Source: Escherichia phage K1ind2
Sequence record: NC_041898.1
Direction: 5' to 3' (one strand)
DNA length: 42,765 bases
Shown: positions 9,771-37,580 of the stretch, in pieces
Layout of the letters: every line of letters starts with the position of its first letter
How positions within the stretch are numbered: the stretch's first letter is position 1
The notes under the pieces: generated by a model
Told to the model about the DNA's origin: nothing
Databases searched by the model: none
Seen by the model: only the letters and a program-made list of their open reading frames with translations
Position numbers and translations under genes: made by a program

Positions 9771-10183
9771 TGGGCTACTTTGAGGACTTAACAAAAGCGT
9801 TCGATGTTCCGCTGGTAGCCTTCGGAACCGCCAACGGCATCAAGGTCGCGCTTGAAAACATCGACGCGCCGACGTCAACCGATACGCCATATCTGGCAAG
9901 TTACATGTTACTTGCGGATACGGAACAGGCGGATTTGTTCTTCACGGAACAACGCGCCGGTGTTTATCAGGTAGACATTAACTACGCATCGGTGAAAGGT
10001 AGCGCGCCAATCAATAAAATGGCAGACTTACTTAACACGGCGTTTAAAGCAGGTAAGTCATTTTCACGTAACGACATCTGCGCCGAGGTTCAATCGGTTA
10101 GCCTGGGGCCGCTGATTGTAGAAAACGGATGGGCCAAACGACCATTGTCAATTAACTTTATTGCATTCACCAAGAGGCTGTGA
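9767..10183 (+). CDS. Hypothetical tail terminator-like protein
   Basis: 138 aa; ATGA overlaps on both sides; lies immediately upstream of the major tail gene. Confidence 0.45.
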   Translation: MMGYFEDLTKAFDVPLVAFGTANGIKVALENIDAPTSTDTPYLASYMLLADTEQADLFFTEQRAGVYQVDINYASVKGSAPINKMADLLNTAFKAGKSFSRNDICAEVQSVSLGPLIVENGWAKRPLSINFIAFTKRL

Positions 10184-11352
10184 ATATGGCTACAACTCCT
10201 TTTAAGGGCGCGAATACCGCGCAATTCTATGTGGCGGAAGTCACCCCGGGCGTAACACCGACTAACCCGGTCTGGTCACCGTTGCGTAACACTGGCGGTG
10301 TTCCTGCTATCACCCGCGACACGCTGACCTCCAACGAACTGGACGGCAGCCGTGAAACTACATCCATCCGCACCGGTAACAAACAGGTTAGCGGTGAATA
10401 CGCGATCGAGCTTAGCTCGAAAAGCCAGGATGACTGGCTGGCTGGTGCTTTAGGCTCTACGTGGCAATCCGGTGTTTCCCTGTCCAGTCTGTCGATTACC
10501 GTCGCACCCGCAGGCAAGACGTTCACACGCGCTACCGGCAGTTTTATCACTGACGGAGTTGGGGTAGGCGACCTGATTGCATTTACCGATTTAACAGGCG
10601 ATAACGCAAAACCATTTATTGTTACTGCAGTAACGGCTACGGTTGTTACTGGTGCGGGCATCCAACACACCCTGACCACCGAGACAAAAACTAGTAAGGC
10701 TAAAACCGGCGACACGCTGGAAACCGGTAACACGTGTAAGACGTTCTCTATCCTTACCTGGTACAAAGGCCAGTGCGGCGGTACTGACGCGTACACGTTA
10801 ACCAAAGGCGTGGAAGTTTCTGGTTTTACCATCGAACAGGCTGTTAACGCGATGGTAACTGGCAGCTTCCCATTCATCGGTCGCAGTCAGGAGATTCTCA
10901 CTACGCCGCCGACCGGTTCCAACTTCTCATCTGTTACTTTTGGTGATGAGCCGTTCTCTTCGGTTGACGTTTCCGTGTTCGATGGCTCTACGCCGTTGCG
11001 TTGTGATAGCCTTACCATCACCAACGACAACAGCGCGTCCGCACAGTTCGAACTCGGCAACACTAACGTAGCGTTTGTGGAGCGTAGCCGAGCAGCTAAC
11101 ACCTTCTCCATCTCCGGTAAGCTGTACGACATGGCGATGATTCAGAAGTTTATCAACGAGCAGCAGGTGGAGATTAACTCTATTCTGGCGGGGGTAAACG
11201 GGGCTATGTCTTTCAGTTTGAAACGTGCAGAACTTACGGCGGTTACACCTGAGATTGGAGGACCTGAGTCAATCACTCAGTCTATTGAAGGCCAGGCTAC
11301 TGGCAACCAGTACCAGTCGTCTATTGTTATTCAGCGTATCACATACGCATAA
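10180..11352 (+). CDS. Major tail protein (putative)
   Basis: 390 aa; last large gene before the chaperone/tape-measure block; followed by a strong bidirectional terminator. Confidence 0.6.
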   Translation: MNMATTPFKGANTAQFYVAEVTPGVTPTNPVWSPLRNTGGVPAITRDTLTSNELDGSRETTSIRTGNKQVSGEYAIELSSKSQDDWLAGALGSTWQSGVSLSSLSITVAPAGKTFTRATGSFITDGVGVGDLIAFTDLTGDNAKPFIVTAVTATVVTGAGIQHTLTTETKTSKAKTGDTLETGNTCKTFSILTWYKGQCGGTDAYTLTKGVEVSGFTIEQAVNAMVTGSFPFIGRSQEILTTPPTGSNFSSVTFGDEPFSSVDVSVFDGSTPLRCDSLTITNDNSASAQFELGNTNVAFVERSRAANTFSISGKLYDMAMIQKFINEQQVEINSILAGVNGAMSFSLKRAELTAVTPEIGGPESITQSIEGQATGNQYQSSIVIQRITYA

Positions 11353-11357
11353 AACTA

Positions 11358-11380
11358 AGGCCCCGTTTGGGGCCTTTTTC
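11358..11380. terminator. Bidirectional terminator between convergent transcription units
   Basis: aaggcccc-gtttg-gggcctt hairpin with T-run on plus strand; lies between the plus-strand major tail gene and the minus-strand kinase gene; near-identical element at 24008-24031. Confidence 0.65.
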
Positions 11381-11935
11381 TTACAAACCTAATCTTAAAG
11401 CAATGCCTATAGCGTTCGATTTAACGTAACCCGGTATGATGTAGGTGTCATAATCTTTTACACCATCAATATCGTACAGGTAACCGCGGCTGTCCCCTTC
11501 AAACGTATGGCCGTCTCTGTGCAAGCGGACGATTCTCACATCATGCCCTGCGGCAACGATAGGGGCTACTTCGCTGGCGAACCCGCCATCAGACACCACA
11601 AAAACTTCGTCGCCGTCGGGCAAGTTTCCGGAAAGATACTTACCGAAATAATCATCACCGAATACCGGTTTAATGAATTGCTCGGAAATGGCAATCATGA
11701 ACTGACGCCGAGACAACCCGTTAAGGAAACCCTCTGGCTTTTCTTTCCGCGCCCGGTCGTCGTAGCCGTCGAGAAACTCGCGGTAAGCATCCTGGCCTAA
11801 CGCAGCCATAGCAATATTGAACATCGGATTCTTGAAACTGGCGACACCCTTCGCAAAGCCCATTTCTACCAGCGCCCTAGCAAGTGTGTCTTTCCCGCAG
11901 CCCGCAGGACCATTAAGAATAATTACCTTAGCCAT
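11381..11935 (-). CDS. P-loop kinase (dNMP kinase / polynucleotide kinase-like)
   Basis: 184 aa; Walker A GPAGCGKDT at residues 9-17; small nucleotide-kinase size; start overlaps stop of upstream HAD gene (TAATG). Confidence 0.6.
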   Translation of the reverse strand: MAKVIILNGPAGCGKDTLARALVEMGFAKGVASFKNPMFNIAMAALGQDAYREFLDGYDDRARKEKPEGFLNGLSRRQFMIAISEQFIKPVFGDDYFGKYLSGNLPDGDEVFVVSDGGFASEVAPIVAAGHDVRIVRLHRDGHTFEGDSRGYLYDIDGVKDYDTYIIPGYVKSNAIGIALRLGL

Positions 11936-12420
11936 TATTTATCACTCCCATGTGGTTTTAAGTGTGTAGAGTTCCCGTTACAGTCGTATTCAGTAACTGC
12001 GTGAGTGGTTATGCCGAGTTCGCGGAAATGCTTTATTACCGCTGGAGAGTCGTCGAATGCACACAAGATTCTCTCCGGCCCAATAGCACGCAACACCTCT
12101 TCTTTAATTACGATGTCTTTTCTGTTGTCGTGTTTGCTGCGCATGATTAACTGATAAAATTCGACGCGGTGGCGCTGCAACCACATTCTGGTTTCTTTTT
12201 CCGCGTCATCACTACGGCCTGTTAAGATAATAACGGCATAGCGACGATTAAGGGCGTTACACAGTTCGATGTTATCTTTAATGGGTGCATCGTCTTTGCA
12301 CGCCATGTTAAATGGTTTCCACGCCCAGGTTTCGCCGTAGTTATCTTTCGGCAGCAGGTGTAAACGATGAGTACCATCTGCCAATGTCCCGTCTAAATCG
12401 AAAATCACAATATCTTTCAT
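11935..12420 (-). CDS. HAD-superfamily phosphatase (PNK-type 3'-phosphatase-like)
   Basis: 161 aa; N-terminal DxDGT motif (IVIFDLDGTLADG), later ILTGRS and FDDS motifs in the order expected for HAD phosphatases; resembles my recollection of the T4 Pnk phosphatase domain. Confidence 0.7.
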   Translation of the reverse strand: MKDIVIFDLDGTLADGTHRLHLLPKDNYGETWAWKPFNMACKDDAPIKDNIELCNALNRRYAVIILTGRSDDAEKETRMWLQRHRVEFYQLIMRSKHDNRKDIVIKEEVLRAIGPERILCAFDDSPAVIKHFRELGITTHAVTEYDCNGNSTHLKPHGSDK

Positions 12421-13547
12421 CCAAGCATCTCCGGTGAAATAGTTAAACGTGCGACCTCGCCATATTCGGCGCTATAAGTAATTACGTTTGCACTGCGGCC
12501 CGACATCCATCCGCCGCGCGAGGCGTAGGCGTCTTTAGCCGCCAGGGTGCGGTGTTGTTCAACAATCATGTTACGGCTTTCTACAATCTTCTGATGGTGC
12601 AGGTGTCCTATATGGGCGTAGCTGTAAACACTCTCGCCGAACGCTTTGCGGAACTTGGCGATCATAACCGGTTCGATAGCATCGAAGCGTGCTTTATGGC
12701 CGTGGTGAAAGAACAGCGTAGTTTTGCCGTGTTGCACCATCTTGTAAACATCCGGCGACGTATCGACGAACACACGCGGCTCATTGTCGTACAGCGTACT
12801 AAACATCTCAGCTAACCAAATCATTCCGCTTTCGTCGTGGTTACCTTGCACAATAAGCAAGCGAACATTTTTATGCTTAACAAGGGCCATATCAACGACA
12901 CGGCGGACCATACGAATCATGTAGCGGACCAGTTTCTGATAGCGCGTGTCCGCATCGAGAACATGACCACTTGCCGGTGTAACGGCGTCCAGGCTATCGA
13001 AGTGCGCAAGGTCGCCGAGCAGATTAATAACTCCTGTTCCTGCATCCGGCGCTTTCTTAAACGCGGCATCGAACCAACGAGAGAACAGGTCTTCCGCGAT
13101 TTTCATATCCCAGTCGTCGCCGCTCTCGTCAGCCCATGCCAGCATACCGAGGTGAAAATCAGATACCGTGTAAAGATTGAGTAGCTTGCCGTCGCGTTTG
13201 GCGCGTGCTGCTTTAACAGGGGCGACTGGCGTAATCTCTGATTTCATTCCTTCGATTACGGCTTTCATCAACTCGACCTGACGTTCAGCATCGGTGTCTG
13301 TCTTAACCCATTGCAACTTAGTGTTGCCGAACTCGTCCACCAGCGACGACGTTCCTTTAATCTTGTAGCCGTCCGGCACAAGGTGACTAACGTCGCGCCC
13401 GTGGCCTACGCCTTTCTTAGCCAGCTTCGCTTTACGGATACGGATAACGCGGTCAGAGATGCCGTATTTACGAGCTATATCGATATTCTTCATCCCGGCG
13501 TTCAATTCTTCCTGCAACTGTTCGTCGGTTATTTTCTTCTGGGCCAT
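12417..13547 (-). CDS. Calcineurin-like metallophosphoesterase (SbcD/Mre11-like motifs) with N-terminal HTH-like domain
   Basis: 376 aa; N-terminal about 45 aa HTH-like (NIDIARKYGISDRVIRIR); metallophosphoesterase motifs in canonical order: SDFHLG, GDLAHFD, GNHDE, HHGH, GHLHH. No SbcC/Rad50-like partner in window. Confidence 0.7.
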   Translation of the reverse strand: MAQKKITDEQLQEELNAGMKNIDIARKYGISDRVIRIRKAKLAKKGVGHGRDVSHLVPDGYKIKGTSSLVDEFGNTKLQWVKTDTDAERQVELMKAVIEGMKSEITPVAPVKAARAKRDGKLLNLYTVSDFHLGMLAWADESGDDWDMKIAEDLFSRWFDAAFKKAPDAGTGVINLLGDLAHFDSLDAVTPASGHVLDADTRYQKLVRYMIRMVRRVVDMALVKHKNVRLLIVQGNHDESGMIWLAEMFSTLYDNEPRVFVDTSPDVYKMVQHGKTTLFFHHGHKARFDAIEPVMIAKFRKAFGESVYSYAHIGHLHHQKIVESRNMIVEQHRTLAAKDAYASRGGWMSGRSANVITYSAEYGEVARLTISPEMLG

Positions 13548-13585
13548 ACTTACTTCCTCGTGTTTAGGATTTGTCCTATACTAGC

Positions 13586-13777
13586 TCACTTCTCGTTAAC
13601 ATTCGAGTTGCACGCCCAGATTAAAATAAAGACCCACGGCAGCAGCGCCCAGCCAAGAAACAGATTAGCCATGAATATCGCTAACTTCGCTTTATGGTTA
13701 CGGAAGTACGCAACCAGGAAAGGCGCAAAATAAACGAGAAGTGCAAACAGAATTAAGGAAACTGGTAAACTTGACAT
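13586..13777 (-). CDS. Small inner-membrane protein (superinfection-immunity Imm-like)
   Basis: ORF track 13586-13792; second ATG (13777) has GGAGGG SD and is preferred (63 aa). Two predicted TM helices; YFAPFLVAYFRNHKAKLAIFMANLFLGWALLPW resembles the Imm_superinfect family signature as I recall it. Confidence 0.55.
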   Translation of the reverse strand: MSSLPVSLILFALLVYFAPFLVAYFRNHKAKLAIFMANLFLGWALLPWVFILIWACNSNVNEK

Positions 13778-13807
13778 TTTAAATCCCTCCATTGTTGGTG
13801 TAAGTGA

Positions 13808-13836
13808 ATAGTACCCTATTATATTGGGGTGTGCAA
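13808..13836 (-). promoter_or_regulatory. Sigma70-type promoter (TTGCAC-N17-TACTAT) driving the minus-strand island
   Basis: Minus-strand TTGCAC (plus 13831-13836), 17-nt spacer, TACTAT (plus 13808-13813); 35 of 37 nt identical to the plus-strand promoter at 36087-36123. Confidence 0.6.
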
Positions 13837-13944
13837 GTAATGTGATAGAATAATTTTGCGCCTAGTGTCGCACACGAAAAGCGGGTGGTTCCCGTCTGGC
13901 GCATTTATCGTTAACCTGTAACCTCTTAACCAAAGGATTAAAGA

Positions 13945-14361
13945 ATGAAACTTTCTGATTTTTATTTCGAAGAGAAAGCACTGGCGGGCAAGAAGATGCC
14001 GATTCTCCTGCCGAATGGCGAAGACTCCGGTGAGTGGCTTAACGTTGTAAATCCAGATGCGGATGCCGCCGTTAAAGCGGGGCGTGCTTTCATTATTGCG
14101 TACCGCCGCGGGCTGGCACGTTTTGAAGAACTGGAAAAAGCTGCCAAAGACTCTGGTGATTATACTGAATATAACCTGGCGGTTAACGAACTGGCAGAAG
14201 ACCTCAACCGGCAACTTGCGGCAGAAGTAGTAAACGGCTGGAGCTTTGACGAGCCTTTCTCTAAGGAAGCGTTTAGCAAATTGCTCGACCAATTCAAGGC
14301 ATTAGGTACACAGGTGGCGGCGTTCCATAACGCCGAGCGTAAAGCATTACAGGAAAAGTAG
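13945..14361 (+). CDS. Tail assembly chaperone (G-like)
   Basis: 138 aa acidic protein immediately upstream of the tape measure gene; overlapping -1 frame ORF downstream. Confidence 0.6.
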   Translation: MKLSDFYFEEKALAGKKMPILLPNGEDSGEWLNVVNPDADAAVKAGRAFIIAYRRGLARFEELEKAAKDSGDYTEYNLAVNELAEDLNRQLAAEVVNGWSFDEPFSKEAFSKLLDQFKALGTQVAAFHNAERKALQEK

Positions 14362-14726
14362 ACGCGCTGTACAGGTTCGCCACCTACGAGTTTGTGGATA
14401 AGCATAAAATCAGAGAGTTTGATTCTATCGCCGACGGACACGAACAGGCGCTTATCGCGATGGGTGTAATCGATAAGAAAAAACGTGCAGCGCGACGGGG
14501 TGGGCCAGAATGCCCGCCCCTTTTTATATCCACCTTTGAGACGTATTGCGACATTAAGTTTACGCGACACGTGCGCGAGGACGCTGTAGTATTGTTTGCA
14601 AGAGAATCTGTTACGTGGCAAGACCTGAAAGCCTATCTCGATGTTACGCAAAAACAGCTTAGCCTGTTCGAGATAGACATTATCATGGGCTTAGAAGCAA
14701 TCTTTGAAGGTAGAAATCATGGCTGA
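14343..14726 (+). CDS. Tail assembly chaperone -1 frameshift extension (GT-like)
   Basis: The -1 frame opens at 14343 (after TAA at 14340-14342) and overlaps the last 6 codons of the G-like ORF; candidate slip at GGAAAAG (14352-14358) just before the G stop; extension ends at 14726, overlapping the tape measure start. Confidence 0.5.
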   Translation, partial: SITGKVDALYRFATYEFVDKHKIREFDSIADGHEQALIAMGVIDKKKRAARRGGPECPPLFISTFETYCDIKFTRHVREDAVVLFARESVTWQDLKAYLDVTQKQLSLFEIDIIMGLEAIFEGRNHG

Positions 14727-24007: not shown

Positions 24008-24031
24008 TAAGGCCCCAAACGGGGCCTTTTC
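24008..24031. terminator. Bidirectional terminator between tailspike and minus-strand replication module
   Basis: aaggcccc-aaacg-gggcctt hairpin with flanking T-runs; near copy of the terminator at 11358-11380. Confidence 0.65.
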
Positions 24032-35162: not shown

Positions 35163-35220
35163 GTTATATTTCCTTCAGCAAGTAATTTGGCCTCGGCGTT
35201 CACCGCGTCGGGGCTTTCTT

Positions 35221-35496
35221 TTATTCCAGGTCGCGGGAGATATTACCCTCGGGCACCAACACTTTTCCAATACTTCTCGCTTTCTCTGTAATAGGCGTCG
35301 CTCTTGTTGCCCGATAAAACTTTCCTTTATTAAGAATCTCACCATGTCGCTCGAGCACATCTAAAGCATGTTTGATCGGGTTTACACCGTAATTATCCAA
35401 CCGGTATCTCCGAAGCCCGTCTACCGTAAAAGCGCCGTTCGCTTCGGTCAGTCTGCGTGCACACATTAATATGTGTTTCTGGAATTTAGTTAGCAT
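35221..35496 (-). CDS. Hypothetical protein
   Basis: ORF track 35221-35541; internal ATG at 35496 with GGAGAA SD preferred (91 aa). Confidence 0.4.
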   Translation of the reverse strand: MLTKFQKHILMCARRLTEANGAFTVDGLRRYRLDNYGVNPIKHALDVLERHGEILNKGKFYRATRATPITEKARSIGKVLVPEGNISRDLE

Positions 35497-35665
35497 CTTT
35501 AACGTTCTCCTTAATCCACGCCTCCACAGTAGCGCGGTCAAAGGTACCTGGCTGACGGTAGCCGTTGATAACGCGGCAACACTCCGGGAACTTTCCTGAC
35601 CGAAGCCAGCGATTAAGAGTCATAGGGGAAACCCCGATTAAGTCTGCTACTTCTTTCTGTGTCAT
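35486..35665 (-). CDS. Small HTH DNA-binding protein (AlpA/excisionase-like)
   Basis: ORF track 35486-35695; ATG at 35665 with GAGAGGG SD preferred. TQKEVADLIGVSPMTLNRWLRSGKFPE is a typical AlpA/MerR-type HTH. Confidence 0.6.
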   Translation of the reverse strand: MTQKEVADLIGVSPMTLNRWLRSGKFPECCRVINGYRQPGTFDRATVEAWIKENVKDAN

Positions 35666-35736
35666 TTTACACGCCCTCTCTATCAAGTGAAACAACTATA
35701 ACACCTACAATAGACAAACACAACCTATTGACAAAA

Positions 35737-35765
35737 TAAAATGTAGCTGTAAAATCAACGTATCG
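35737..35765 (+). promoter_or_regulatory. Candidate sigma70 promoter (TTGACA-N16-TAAAAT) in long intergenic region
   Basis: TTGACA at 35737-35742, 16-nt spacer, TAAAAT; about 380 nt upstream of the first plus-strand early gene. Confidence 0.4.
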
Positions 35766-36086
35766 AATGGCTTTAGTTAAGAATTACTTAGAAACAATAT
35801 TCTTAAGTCTCGGGTACTTAAAGCCCCGCCATAAAGCGGGGCGCTAAATAGTACTCTTGGTAACGTTAGTATCTAAGTTTCCTCAAAGTAACAGCAAGTG
35901 GCAAGAAAGCCCCCGTCTATTTAAATTTTACCCTCCTTCATAAGACACTGATAATTAAAAGTTTCTATAGTTGCCGTAAACGTGGAAGAGAGTACTTCAC
36001 TTCGCTGGGGTGGGCTAACGCCCACCCACTGCGTTGCGTACTCTTTTAAGAAACGAAAGAATCACAACGGCAACGTAACTATTCTC

Positions 36087-36115
36087 TTGCACACCCCAAC
36101 ATAATAGGATACTAT
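36087..36115 (+). promoter_or_regulatory. Sigma70-type early promoter (TTGCAC-N17-TACTAT)
   Basis: -35 TTGCAC 36087-36092, 17-nt spacer, -10 TACTAT 36110-36115; about 35 nt upstream of ATG 36150; near-identical copies at 13808-13836 (minus) and 37387-37415. Confidence 0.65.
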
Positions 36116-36149
36116 TCACTTATCGAGACGAGACAGAGGAGTGAGGGTT

Positions 36150-36347
36150 ATGTTTAAGAATGGTCAGTTGGTTAAATACTCCGACGATAAACACGGCATA
36201 ATTGAATTAAAATCTGCTTTATTTCCAGGAAAGTACGTAGTTACCGTGCAAAATGTGAGAGGAGTAAATTCACAAATATACGTAGCAGAGGAGAACTTAA
36301 AACTCATCGGCAACAATTTTAAATTTAAAGGGGGGAGGGTGAAGTGA
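36150..36347 (+). CDS. Hypothetical early protein
   Basis: ORF track 36141-36347 (GTG); ATG 36150 with GGAGTGAGGG SD preferred (65 aa). Confidence 0.45.
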   Translation: MFKNGQLVKYSDDKHGIIELKSALFPGKYVVTVQNVRGVNSQIYVAEENLKLIGNNFKFKGGRVK

Positions 36348-36547
36348 TGGAAGAATTATTTGAAGAACTGAAACATCATGATTTCGAGGAAATATATTTC
36401 GTAGCTGAACGCTACGAGGTGCATCTGGCGGACGGTATAACGGTTATTACATCTACCAGCGAGCGAATGTTAAATAGCTTACGAGCAATACGAACGGCAT
36501 CGAATCATGATGCTTGTGCCGACGACGCTGAGGGAGGTTGCCGTTAA
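36344..36547 (+). CDS. Hypothetical early protein
   Basis: 67 aa; ATGA overlap with upstream gene; acidic. Confidence 0.45.
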   Translation: MMEELFEELKHHDFEEIYFVAERYEVHLADGITVITSTSERMLNSLRAIRTASNHDACADDAEGGCR

Positions 36548-36726
36548 TGCGAATCCGTATAACTGACCGCAGGCTTGTCCGTATAACTGACCGCAGGCTT
36601 ATAGATTTCGGTATCTCGGTAGGTGATGTTTTTCCGGCGTTCAGCATCAACCATTATGGTTTTATGATTGAGTACAAAGGGTCGTTATTGTTCGTGTATC
36701 GGGATGAATGTGAGGTTCTGGTATGA
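36547..36726 (+). CDS. Hypothetical early protein containing an in-frame 8-codon tandem duplication
   Basis: ORF track 36538-36726 (TTG); ATG 36547 with GAGGGAGG SD preferred (59 aa); encodes RITDRRLVRITDRRLI from the 24-bp DNA tandem repeat. Confidence 0.4.
   Translation: MRIRITDRRLVRITDRRLIDFGISVGDVFPAFSINHYGFMIEYKGSLLFVYRDECEVLV
36554..36601. repeat. 24-bp tandem direct repeat, 2 copies
   Basis: tccgtataactgaccgcaggcttg followed by tccgtataactgaccgcaggctta (47 of 48 positions identical). Confidence 0.9.
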
Positions 36727-36872
36727 GAGAAGCATTTGAACGGTGGGCTGTGGTCGAGGGTCTGCCGGTTAACAAGGGTTCAAAGAAAGAGTACCTGAAC
36801 GTTAAGACGCGTCTCGCGTGGCGGGCGTGGAAAGCTGGTGTGCAATCCTTGATTGAAAGAGGTGTGAGGTAT
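36723..36872 (+). CDS. Small hypothetical protein (49 aa)
   Basis: Hand-found; start overlaps upstream stop, stop overlaps downstream ATG; W/R-rich basic protein. Confidence 0.35.
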
Positions 36873-37071
36873 GGGTGAGTGGATTAAGTGTAGTGAGATG
36901 CTGCCAGGTAATGGGTATACGGATAAAGAGTTCCTGGTGTATGAAACGTTAAATAACGCAGTTCAGCACGATTATTACATAGTTCCTGATGACGGGAGAA
37001 AGCCTTTCTGGAATCACTACGATAAGTACGTGACGCACTGGATGCCGTTACCCGAGCCGCCAGAAGTGTGA
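36871..37071 (+). CDS. DUF551-like protein
   Basis: 66 aa; WIKCSEMLP...VTHWMPLPEPPE matches the conserved pattern of phage DUF551 proteins as I recall it. Confidence 0.55.
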   Translation: MGEWIKCSEMLPGNGYTDKEFLVYETLNNAVQHDYYIVPDDGRKPFWNHYDKYVTHWMPLPEPPEV

Positions 37072-37205
37072 TGTTCAATAGTTTGGGATTTTACTGAGTG
37101 ACTTACGCTGCTACACCGCAGCGTACAACTTTAACTTAGTGTCGTCAAAAGGCGACACTTTCATCAAACGCAACAATCGAAGCGACTATTGCAGGAGATG
37201 CAACA

Positions 37206-37379
37206 ATGATTACTAAAGAACAGGCTGAACGACTAATAACGTTAATCGACACGATGATTGACGTAAAAACCGATTTAGCAACGGCAACAGAGGAATCCGC
37301 TACCTGGTCGCTTGAAGAAAGAGAAGCAGAAGCGGAAAGGGAGTTACTGGCATTCATCGACTCCATAACACACCAATAA
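37206..37379 (+). CDS. Small hypothetical acidic protein (57 aa)
   Basis: Hand-found; AGGAG SD 9 nt before ATG; preceded by two stem-loops (37110-37170). Confidence 0.35.
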   Translation: MITKEQAERLITLIDTMIDVKTDLATATEESATWSLEEREAEAERELLAFIDSITHQ

Positions 37380-37386
37380 AATTTAC

Positions 37387-37415
37387 TTGCACACTAAGAT
37401 AGAATAGGCTACTAT
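37387..37415 (+). promoter_or_regulatory. Sigma70-type early promoter (TTGCAC-N17-TACTAT)
   Basis: -35 TTGCAC 37387-37392, 17-nt spacer, -10 TACTAT 37410-37415; same family as 36087-36115. Confidence 0.6.
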
Positions 37416-37445
37416 TCATTTACACAAGCGAGAGGAGAGACAGAG

Positions 37446-37580
37446 ATGGGCTGGTACGGTAGCTGGACTTTAGGCGAACTGGTAGACGCTTACGAAATAA
37501 TTAGTAGCACTTCGGTGTGTGACGGCGACACTAAATCGCTGCTAGTCGTGGTGGATGCGAAAAGGGGTGAAGCTGATGAG
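37446..37580 (+). CDS. Small hypothetical protein (44 aa)
   Basis: Hand-found; AGGAGAGA SD upstream; first ORF after promoter; overlaps next gene start. Confidence 0.3.

Follow-up and report, generated by a model that had tools for sequence, protein, structure and literature searches.

A mosaic gene island in the tail operon of Escherichia phage K1ind2 combines an Imm-like protein, a divergent HTH-metallophosphoesterase and an optional phosphatase-kinase pair

Between the major tail gene and the tail-chaperone genes of Escherichia phage K1ind2 lie four genes in the opposite orientation, which encode an Imm-like small membrane protein, a metallophosphoesterase with an N-terminal helix-turn-helix domain (HTH-MPE), a stand-alone HAD phosphatase of the polynucleotide kinase-phosphatase (Pnkp) type, and a P-loop kinase. 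We analyzed this island within sequence record NC_041898.1 (42,765 nucleotides (nt), hereafter the window), and all coordinates are window positions. The 5-kb stretch spanning the island is 100% identical to Escherichia phage K1ind3 (GU196281.1; Kagunavirus, Guernseyvirinae; record coordinate minus 696 gives the window coordinate), where the genes were already deposited as ORF18-21. In RefSeq relatives, the same genes are named “ATP-binding protein” (kinase), “polynucleotide kinase” (HAD), “DNA repair exonuclease” (MPE), and “immunity to superinfection” (Imm). An original prediction, made from the sequence alone, had proposed four minus-strand genes at this site, and all of these open reading frames (ORFs) are present, together with the following features.

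10180-11352, plus strand: major tail gene, convergent with the island
11357-11376, with T-runs to 11380, called on both strands: bidirectional intrinsic terminator, hairpin AAGGCCCCGTTTGGGGCCTT
11381-11935, minus strand: P-loop kinase, ORF18, 184 amino acids (aa), of the T4 gp1 (deoxynucleoside monophosphate (dNMP) kinase) family; accessory, paired with the HAD gene
11935-12420, minus strand: stand-alone Pnkp-type HAD phosphatase, ORF19, 161 aa, Pfam HAD_PNKP
12417-13547, minus strand: HTH-MPE, ORF20, 376 aa, phrog_704, with the full MPE motif set
13586-13777, minus strand: Imm-like small membrane protein, ORF21, 63 aa, Pfam Imm_superinfect; first gene of the unit
13808-13836, minus strand: island promoter TTGCAC-N17-TACTAT, hexamers invariant in five phages, member of a three-copy class
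13945-14361, plus strand: tail-chaperone gene, divergent from the island

The Imm-like gene starts at the ATG at 13777, just downstream of a GGAGG, and the mechanical ORF list places its start five codons earlier (13792). The stop of the MPE gene overlaps the start of the HAD gene as ATGA (12417-12420), and the stop of the HAD gene overlaps the start of the kinase gene as TAATG (around 11935). Both overlaps had been predicted and were read directly in the sequence; by this arrangement the MPE, HAD, and kinase genes are translationally coupled. The island has the same orientation as the replication genes. Its base composition shows only a mild dip in GC content and gives no clear sign of foreign origin.

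The domain calls of the original prediction were borne out by profile, motif, and fold searches, whereas an NCBIfam search of the island proteins returned nothing informative. The HAD protein matches Pfam HAD_PNKP at 72.1 bits (cut-off 27.6, E 6.7e-20) and falls in phrog_415 (E 8e-67), the PHROG that is also matched by residues 154-297 of RB69 PseT; its PDB matches are Pnkp1 (4XRP) and T4 Pnkp (1LTQ). In alignments with 1LTQ and 5UJ0, residues D8, D10, T12, R19, and T67 align with T4 Pnkp D165, D167, T169, R176, and S211, and residues R69, D102, K106, D123, and D124 with R213, D254, K258, D277, and D278. The nucleophile motif DxDxT reads D8-L-D10-G-T12, and by these alignments the protein retains the full catalytic set of the T4 Pnkp phosphatase. 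The protein thus resembles the C-terminal HAD domain of T4 Pnkp/PseT in its family, its DxDxT motif, and its counterparts of the T4 phosphate and substrate residues. However, it stands alone and is not fused to a 5′-kinase, the adjacent kinase comes from another family, and the annotation of the near-identical K1ind1 genome includes no RNA ligase as a partner. No 5′-kinase domain was found in its 161 aa, which span the phosphatase domain only (the phrog_505 match is limited to positions 162-292), so the name “polynucleotide kinase” given to it in databases is misleading. Homologs occur in 1,912 phage records, 55 of them at 80% identity or more. In a T1-like metagenomic contig (L023:3675-3932, L024:586-852), the HAD gene between the MPE and kinase genes is called at 85-88 aa and may be a truncated or decaying copy.

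For the kinase, Pfam reveals only a P-loop, and hhalign comparisons of its family with T4 gp1 and with RB69 PseT matched the P-loop alone in both cases and are non-discriminating; the family was assigned by PHROG membership and fold instead. The kinase falls in phrog_139 (E 8.7e-46, profile positions 82-241), as does T4 gp1 (E 1.8e-65, positions 83-261). RB69 Pnkp (PseT) falls in phrog_505, phrog_415, and phrog_2071, and the kinase has no match to phrog_505 or phrog_2071. The AlphaFold2 model of the kinase (predicted local distance difference test (pLDDT) 93) finds as its best PDB match in Foldseek the T4 dNMP kinase 1DEK (E 1.2e-5, TM-score 0.66), and the 50 best matches do not include T4 Pnkp. 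Its P-loop reads GCGKDT, to be compared with SGKDT in T4 gp1 and GKST in Pnkp. PHROG, fold, and the GKD P-loop together place the protein with the T4 gp1 dNMP kinase and not with the polynucleotide kinases, which makes dNMPs its predicted substrates. Nevertheless, the island kinase is shorter than T4 gp1 (184 versus 241 aa) and only 18% identical to it in the structural alignment. The TM-scores are moderate (0.66 and 0.52), and the second-best fold match is an animal phosphomevalonate kinase. Kinase homologs were found in 1,530 phage records (51 at 80% identity or more).

The MPE consists of an N-terminal sigma-70-r4/GerE-like HTH, a small beta region, and a divergent MPE domain. The HTH is picked up by several HTH models, and a Campylobacter phage homolog lacks it. 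The protein belongs to phrog_704 (E 2.8e-167), and its catalytic motifs DxH, GD, GNH, H, and GHxH are invariant in 62 diverse homologs of 31-49% identity (residues D130, H132, G178, D179, N236, H237, H282, G314, and H317). Scores for Pfam Metallophos and Metallophos_2 lie under the cut-offs (21.3 versus 27 bits and 19.1 versus 21.5 bits, respectively), and the MPE is, by these searches, a divergent family not captured by Pfam. Sequence and profile searches of the PDB gave only HTH matches or non-significant nuclease matches; the only MPE-superfamily matches near threshold in the profile search were Nuclease MPE (6NVO) and SbcD/Mre11 (E 0.45-1.9, with the SbcD/Mre11 matches at E 1-2). With hhalign, the MPE family aligned with T4 gp47 over 182 columns, in register across all motifs (E 0.002, at a probability of only 14%), and with lambda NinI over 60 columns, out of register (probability 0.9%). 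The structure model is of low confidence (pLDDT 43, from an alignment restricted to sequences of 88-99% identity).

The signature of lambda-phosphatase/Pnkp-type enzymes is GDxxDRG and GNHE, whereas the corresponding motifs of the island MPE read GDLAHFD and GNHDES. By its motifs and its hhalign score against lambda NinI, the MPE is not of the lambda-phosphatase/Pnkp type, and its weak affinities are with DNA nucleases; it is probably a Mn-dependent DNA nuclease or phosphodiesterase. It shares the DxHLG / GD / GNHD / GHxH flavor of Mre11/SbcD (T4 gp47, E. coli SbcD) and of the Pseudomonas putida Nuclease MPE, which are its only near-threshold relatives, a likeness that is not statistically secure. 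It differs from Mre11/SbcD in its unique N-terminal HTH, in its beta region, and in the segment TLAAxDAYAxRGG...GE.R, which is conserved near the C-terminus. There is also no SbcC/Rad50-type partner gene beside it, and none was found in the K1ind1 or K1ind3 gene lists. With bacterial Pnkp (Clostridium thermocellum) and lambda phosphatase it shares the binuclear metallophosphoesterase superfamily, and bacterial Pnkp likewise joins a kinase and an MPE. However, the GDLAHFD and GNHDES motifs set it apart, as does the absence of a ligase domain. The family is large: homologs were found in 2,042 phage records (290 at 80% identity or more) and in 4,629 clusters at 50% identity in a library of 1.84 billion proteins. 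The MPE is near-universal in Guernseyvirinae, Drexlerviridae, and Dhillonvirus and is a conserved core gene of several siphovirus groups.

The first gene of the unit encodes a member of Pfam Imm_superinfect (PF14373; 50.1 bits, cut-off 27.9, E 2.4e-13) and of phrog_1039 (E 2e-23), and tblastn retrieved the imm genes of the T-even phages JS10 and VR5 at 42-45% identity. Like T4 Imm, the protein is small and has two hydrophobic segments. Unlike T4 Imm, which has about 83 aa, it has 63 aa and is encoded within a siphovirus tail operon. Its presumed role is superinfection exclusion, through a block on the DNA of superinfecting phages. Among 786 phage records with a homolog, 43 are at 90% identity or more and 305 at 60-80%.

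Comparison with relatives, defined as the 381 records matching the 5-kb region, revealed that these genes do not travel together. Collinearity across 80% or more of the region is seen in only 22 of the 381, and the HAD and kinase pair is found in about 50, a minority state within Guernseyvirinae. Bas74 keeps Imm and the MPE and has a 76-aa gene where HAD and kinase stand; K1H keeps MPE, HAD, and kinase and has an unrelated 108-aa gene in the Imm slot; and the Jerseyvirus Ent1 carries Imm, the MPE, an HNH endonuclease, gp21, and a Rha/Ant-like regulator. The terminator stem is kept in K1H, Bas74, and Ent1, and homology breaks immediately past the hairpin. The original prediction had pointed to the major tail/chaperone junction as a place where relatives might vary, and the cargo is indeed swapped there in K1H, Bas74, and Ent1. 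It had also proposed a self-contained four-gene system, which is not what we found, as either Imm or the HAD and kinase pair is replaced independently in close relatives. Since Imm, the HTH-MPE, and the HAD and kinase pair vary independently, they are not one system. From these comparisons, the island is a recombination hot spot between the major-tail terminator and the tail-chaperone genes, in which the MPE stays, Imm nearly always stays, and the distal cargo is exchangeable. The 76-aa replacement gene is 91% identical between the Kagunavirus Bas74 (L002:2883-3113) and the Jerseyvirus Ent1 (gp21, L020:13546-13776). The MPEs of K1ind3 and Ent1 are only 55% identical, and a 91% identical gene beside such MPEs suggests recent exchange or very strong constraint. 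The 76-aa protein matches just the C-terminal ends of several PHROGs of about 240 aa and unknown function. It was also considered as a remnant of a longer kinase, an idea that was dropped because neither the island kinase nor either of two long homologs compared with it showed any similarity.

The MPE, HAD, and kinase genes stand in this order in other phages as well. In the podovirus Era103, the trio lies between endonuclease VII and DNA ligase; in Webervirus, it follows a DNA methyltransferase gene and small ORFs and precedes the holin gene; and a T1-like metagenomic contig has the same order. In the SP6-like podoviruses Aeromonas phage Aer_P220 (L013:2487-3494) and Proteus phage PM93 (L014:2424-3431), the equivalent position ahead of (HAD), kinase, and DNA ligase is taken by an MPE of phrog_221. 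These podovirus MPEs were rejected as homologs of the island HTH-MPE, as they belong to a different family, and a Pfam scan of the Aer_P220 protein gave no match; judging from the families, this looks like non-orthologous replacement. A distant 74-kb metagenomic phage contig (SRR31214410, L021:1787-6202) encodes, in a DNA-metabolism setting and in this order, DNA polymerase, dCMP deaminase, an HTH-MPE homolog (29% identity, E 3e-37; phrog_704, 3e-80), a DUF4406/nucleoside-2-deoxyribosyltransferase-like protein, a gp1-like kinase (39% identity), the product of an unknown gene, and DNA ligase. In this contig, the place of the HAD protein is taken by a different enzyme with a nucleotide-metabolism annotation.

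The original prediction had not recognized the four-gene combination as described. However, many phage records carry annotated genes in the MPE-HAD-kinase order, which has also been noted for Drexlerviridae in a 2026 study (PMC13164509). In that work, an exonuclease-holin-endolysin-spanin block was persistent in 508 of 522 Drexlerviridae, polynucleotide kinase (PNK) and dNMP kinase were the most frequent genes after the exonuclease, and a role in nucleotide supply was proposed. The three genes are homologous to those of the island, in the same order, and the same nucleotide-supply hypothesis applies; in Drexlerviridae they precede the lysis cassette, whereas here they are inverted in the tail operon, follow Imm, and have their own promoter and terminator.

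The separate transcription unit that had been predicted is supported by this conserved promoter and terminator. The terminator hairpin (11357-11376), with T-runs on both strands, agrees with the bidirectional terminator proposed earlier; as read from the sequence, it ends both the transcript of the major tail gene and that of the island and forms the left boundary of the variable cargo. The hairpin loop is flipped among relatives (GTTTG in K1ind3 and K1H, GAAAG in Bas74 and Ent1), as recombination within the palindromic stem would produce. An identical 20-nt hairpin, AAGGCCCCGTTTGGGGCCTT, is found at a second convergent junction, between tailspike and helicase (24009-24028, minus strand). Another strong terminator-like hairpin, GGGGTGGGCCAGAATGCCCGCCCC followed by TTTTT (14497-14520, plus strand; nine pairs, eight of them G-C), sits within the frameshift-extended part of the tail-chaperone gene.

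The case for the island promoter was strengthened. Although TTGCAC-N17-TACTAT matches the sigma-70 consensus at only 7 of 12 positions, CTTGCA and TA.TAT are invariant blocks in an alignment of five phages, with TTGCAT-N17-TATTAT as the Ent1 version. An overlapping promoter preferred by the scanner, ATCACA-N17-TATAAT, was not adopted, since Ent1 conserves the hexamers of TTGCAC/TACTAT but not those of this alternative. Five matches to the promoter pattern occur in the window, compared with 0.47 expected, and none of 100 shuffles gave five or more. Three of the five, listed below with the island copy omitted, are near-identical over about 40 nt, spacer included.

36087-36115, plus strand: second promoter copy, heading a string of small ORFs from the ATG at 36150 through about 37071
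37387-37415, plus strand: third promoter copy, heading the ORFs that start at 37446 and 37555

The three copies share the pattern TTGCACAC...TACTAT, with CTTGCACAC...AATAGG.TACTATTCAYTTA as the extended motif of the class, and each has a ribosome-binding site and the first ATG of its gene string about 30 nt downstream. K1ind1 carries equivalents of all three, and Ent1 has the island copy as well as similar elements in its control region and ahead of a DNA-binding gene. Copies two and three head rightward gene strings in a control region adjoining the replication genes. This part of the window (35200-37500) is dense in small ORFs and in consensus-like sigma-70 promoters on both strands, and its K1ind1 counterpart has no annotated genes over about 2.2 kb. 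It is probably an early control region, holding two island-type promoter copies.

The sharing of a promoter type with two control-region units, together with the orientation of the replication genes, supports independent and probably pre-late expression of the island. The only time-course concerns Kagunavirus K1B4, in which an identical island corresponds to genes 042-045 and the latent period is 30 min. There, Imm was classed with DNA polymerase and methylases, apart from the structural genes; the authors name this class “late” on account of its peak at 110 min or later. The K1B4 data thus indicate regulation apart from the tail genes and are ambiguous on early versus late expression. The “early” label given to the island in the original prediction is plausible, but no more than that, in view of a three-copy promoter class whose other two members lie by the replication genes.

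Next to the island, on the late strand between its promoter and the tail-chaperone ATG, lies a full-length match to the int-alpA RNA motif (RF02996; 13855-13919, plus strand), which scores 31.8 bits where the gathering threshold is 35.8; its E-value is 6.6e-4 for a 3.6-kb search space and 0.008 for the window as a whole. Its three-way junction is nearly base for base that of the consensus (GCGCCUAG..CGAAAAGCGGG..CCCGUCUGGCGC). The motif occurs at the same spot in K1H (31.6 bits, L003:5516-5580) and Bas74 (27.8 bits, L002:4549-4616), and the hairpin-1 arms of Ent1 show compensatory changes, from GUGU/ACAC to CGGU/ACCG. The minimum free energy fold reproduces the structure, with a z-score of only -0.9.

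Our favored explanation, to which we give about an even chance, is a unit of three pieces: an Imm-like exclusion protein, a DNA-binding MPE nuclease or phosphodiesterase, and an optional phosphatase and dNMP kinase for DNA-precursor salvage or DNA-end processing. The MPE would bind DNA through its HTH and cut it, the target probably being host DNA. The HAD phosphatase would strip 3′-phosphates from ends or from 3′-nucleotides, so that breakdown to 5′-dNMPs could continue, and the kinase would turn dNMPs into deoxynucleoside diphosphates for phage DNA synthesis. The Imm-like protein would block the DNA of a superinfecting phage. A joint role in DNA metabolism is suggested by the recurrence of the MPE-HAD-kinase order in unrelated lineages, in DNA-metabolism settings, and nucleotide salvage, an option offered by the original prediction, fits the evidence best among the readings it contained.

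Several points weigh against this explanation. A 3′-phosphatase is not an obvious need for salvage, and degradation of host DNA by Kagunaviruses is presupposed, not established. Most relatives are viable without HAD and kinase, which makes the pair no more than an accessory to fitness. The MPE is often found without the pair, adjoining lysis, terminase, or head genes, and its core role may therefore be unrelated to it. The affinity of the MPE with nucleases falls short of significance (E 0.45-1.9 in the PDB search, 14% probability in hhalign), and the protein could be a phosphatase or a cyclic-nucleotide phosphodiesterase. Finally, every enzymatic activity, the substrates, and the timing are predicted, set beside a gene structure, families, mosaicism, promoter class, and contexts that are observed.

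It is also conceivable, if somewhat unlikely, that the genes have no joint function and are unrelated cargo under a convenient promoter at a hot spot, the HTH-MPE having its own conserved role (for example, as a regulatory phosphatase or phosphodiesterase, or one tied to lysis or packaging timing) and HAD and kinase being nucleotide-metabolism morons. Indeed, the MPE stands alone in Dhillonvirus (between endolysin and terminase), in Jerseyvirus, and in phages of Rhodobacter and Vibrio (downstream of lysis genes and ahead of head genes), and it is part of the persistent exonuclease-holin-endolysin-spanin block in 508 of 522 Drexlerviridae (PMC13164509). Other cargo at the hot spot consists of an HNH endonuclease, a Rha/Ant-like regulator, and the 76-aa protein. 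Such unrelated cargo is hard to reconcile with a translationally coupled MPE-HAD-kinase order that recurs across three families, with the non-homologous MPE that takes the same slot in podoviruses, and with an MPE-kinase linkage that persists at 29% and 39% identity, respectively.

At the other extreme, the HTH-MPE, 3′-phosphatase, and gp1-type kinase might form a dedicated, uncharacterized three-enzyme pathway common to Guernseyvirinae, Drexlerviridae, and some podoviruses, a proposal that we consider unlikely as a whole. Under it, the HTH-MPE would be the long-sought host-DNA nuclease of T1-like phages, with 3′-phosphate products that need the HAD phosphatase before kinase recycling; alternatively, the pathway would heal phage DNA nicked by host defense, and the phage-specific promoter/operator class would co-regulate it with early host-takeover genes.

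Healing of the phage genome can also be envisaged through a complete end-repair series, in which the MPE trims ends, the HAD phosphatase converts 3′-phosphate to 3′-OH, the kinase restores the 5′-phosphate, and a ligase seals nicks or breaks made by host nucleases (the host LigA here, the adjacent phage ligase in podoviruses). Gene neighborhoods lend this series some credit: an ATP-dependent DNA ligase gene is near the module, which lies directly upstream of it in Era103, Aer_P220, and PM93 and one gene away in L021, and in the podoviruses the module comes after exonuclease and endonuclease VII. The HAD protein is of the Pnkp type, and the P. putida MPE nuclease leaves 3′-phosphate ends and is encoded in a repair operon (PMC7826289). 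However, PHROG, fold, and P-loop all make the kinase gp1-type, that is, a predicted dNMP kinase; the HAD slot of L021 holds a nucleoside-deoxyribosyltransferase-like enzyme, which acts on nucleotides and not on DNA ends; and the dCMP deaminase neighbor in the same contig points to nucleotide pools. We judge this series distinctly unlikely.

The original prediction had likened the genes to the end-healing toolkit of T4 Pnk and bacterial Pnkp, a comparison that finds no support in view of the gp1-type kinase, the MPE without the lambda-phosphatase/Pnkp signature, and the lack of an annotated RNA or DNA ligase in K1ind1. Its RNA version, in which the HAD phosphatase removes 2′,3′-cyclic or 3′-phosphates, the kinase phosphorylates 5′-OH RNA ends, and the MPE acts as a cyclic phosphodiesterase to mend tRNAs cut by anticodon nucleases as a counter-defense, is very unlikely. 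It can call on a genuine Pnkp-type phosphatase in which the T4 catalytic residues are all present, on the polynucleotide kinases among P-loop kinases of this fold class, and on the joining of a kinase with an MPE phosphatase in bacterial Pnkp (PMC2190708, PMC3675462). Yet the kinase groups with T4 gp1 and not with the Pnkp kinase domain (phrog_505/2071), the MPE lacks GDxxDRG/GNHE and reaches only 0.9% probability against lambda NinI, no RNA ligase, and indeed no ligase of any kind, was found in the K1ind1 RefSeq annotation or in positions 1-35,696 of the K1ind3 record, other phages have DNA-metabolism genes and DNA ligase next to these genes, and PADLOC defense models gave no matches to the four island proteins.

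From a biological perspective, the island itself is ordinary: all four families had been described and annotated before, a published study already gives the trio order for Drexlerviridae, and we are dealing with annotated phage accessory genes at a mosaic hot spot. What is new is the dissection of the mosaic, the placement of the kinase in the gp1 family, the three-copy promoter class, the linkage of an MPE, a variable enzyme, and a kinase in a distant phage, and the adjacent int-alpA-like RNA motif. The promoter class and the RNA motif offer handles on gene regulation in Kagunavirus. Natural variants provide isogenic-like comparisons, K1ind3 versus Bas74 for the HAD and kinase pair and K1ind3 versus K1H for Imm. 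The main value of the island, however, is as a pointer to a very large uncharacterized enzyme family, the HTH-MPE. About 2,000 sequenced phages carry it, and it persists as a core gene among T1-like, Jersey-like, and Dhillon-like siphoviruses, which include phages under study for therapy. Phages T1 and TLS degrade host DNA by enzymes that were left unidentified (PMC11447400); if the HTH-MPE dismantles host DNA or processes DNA ends, it would close this gap.

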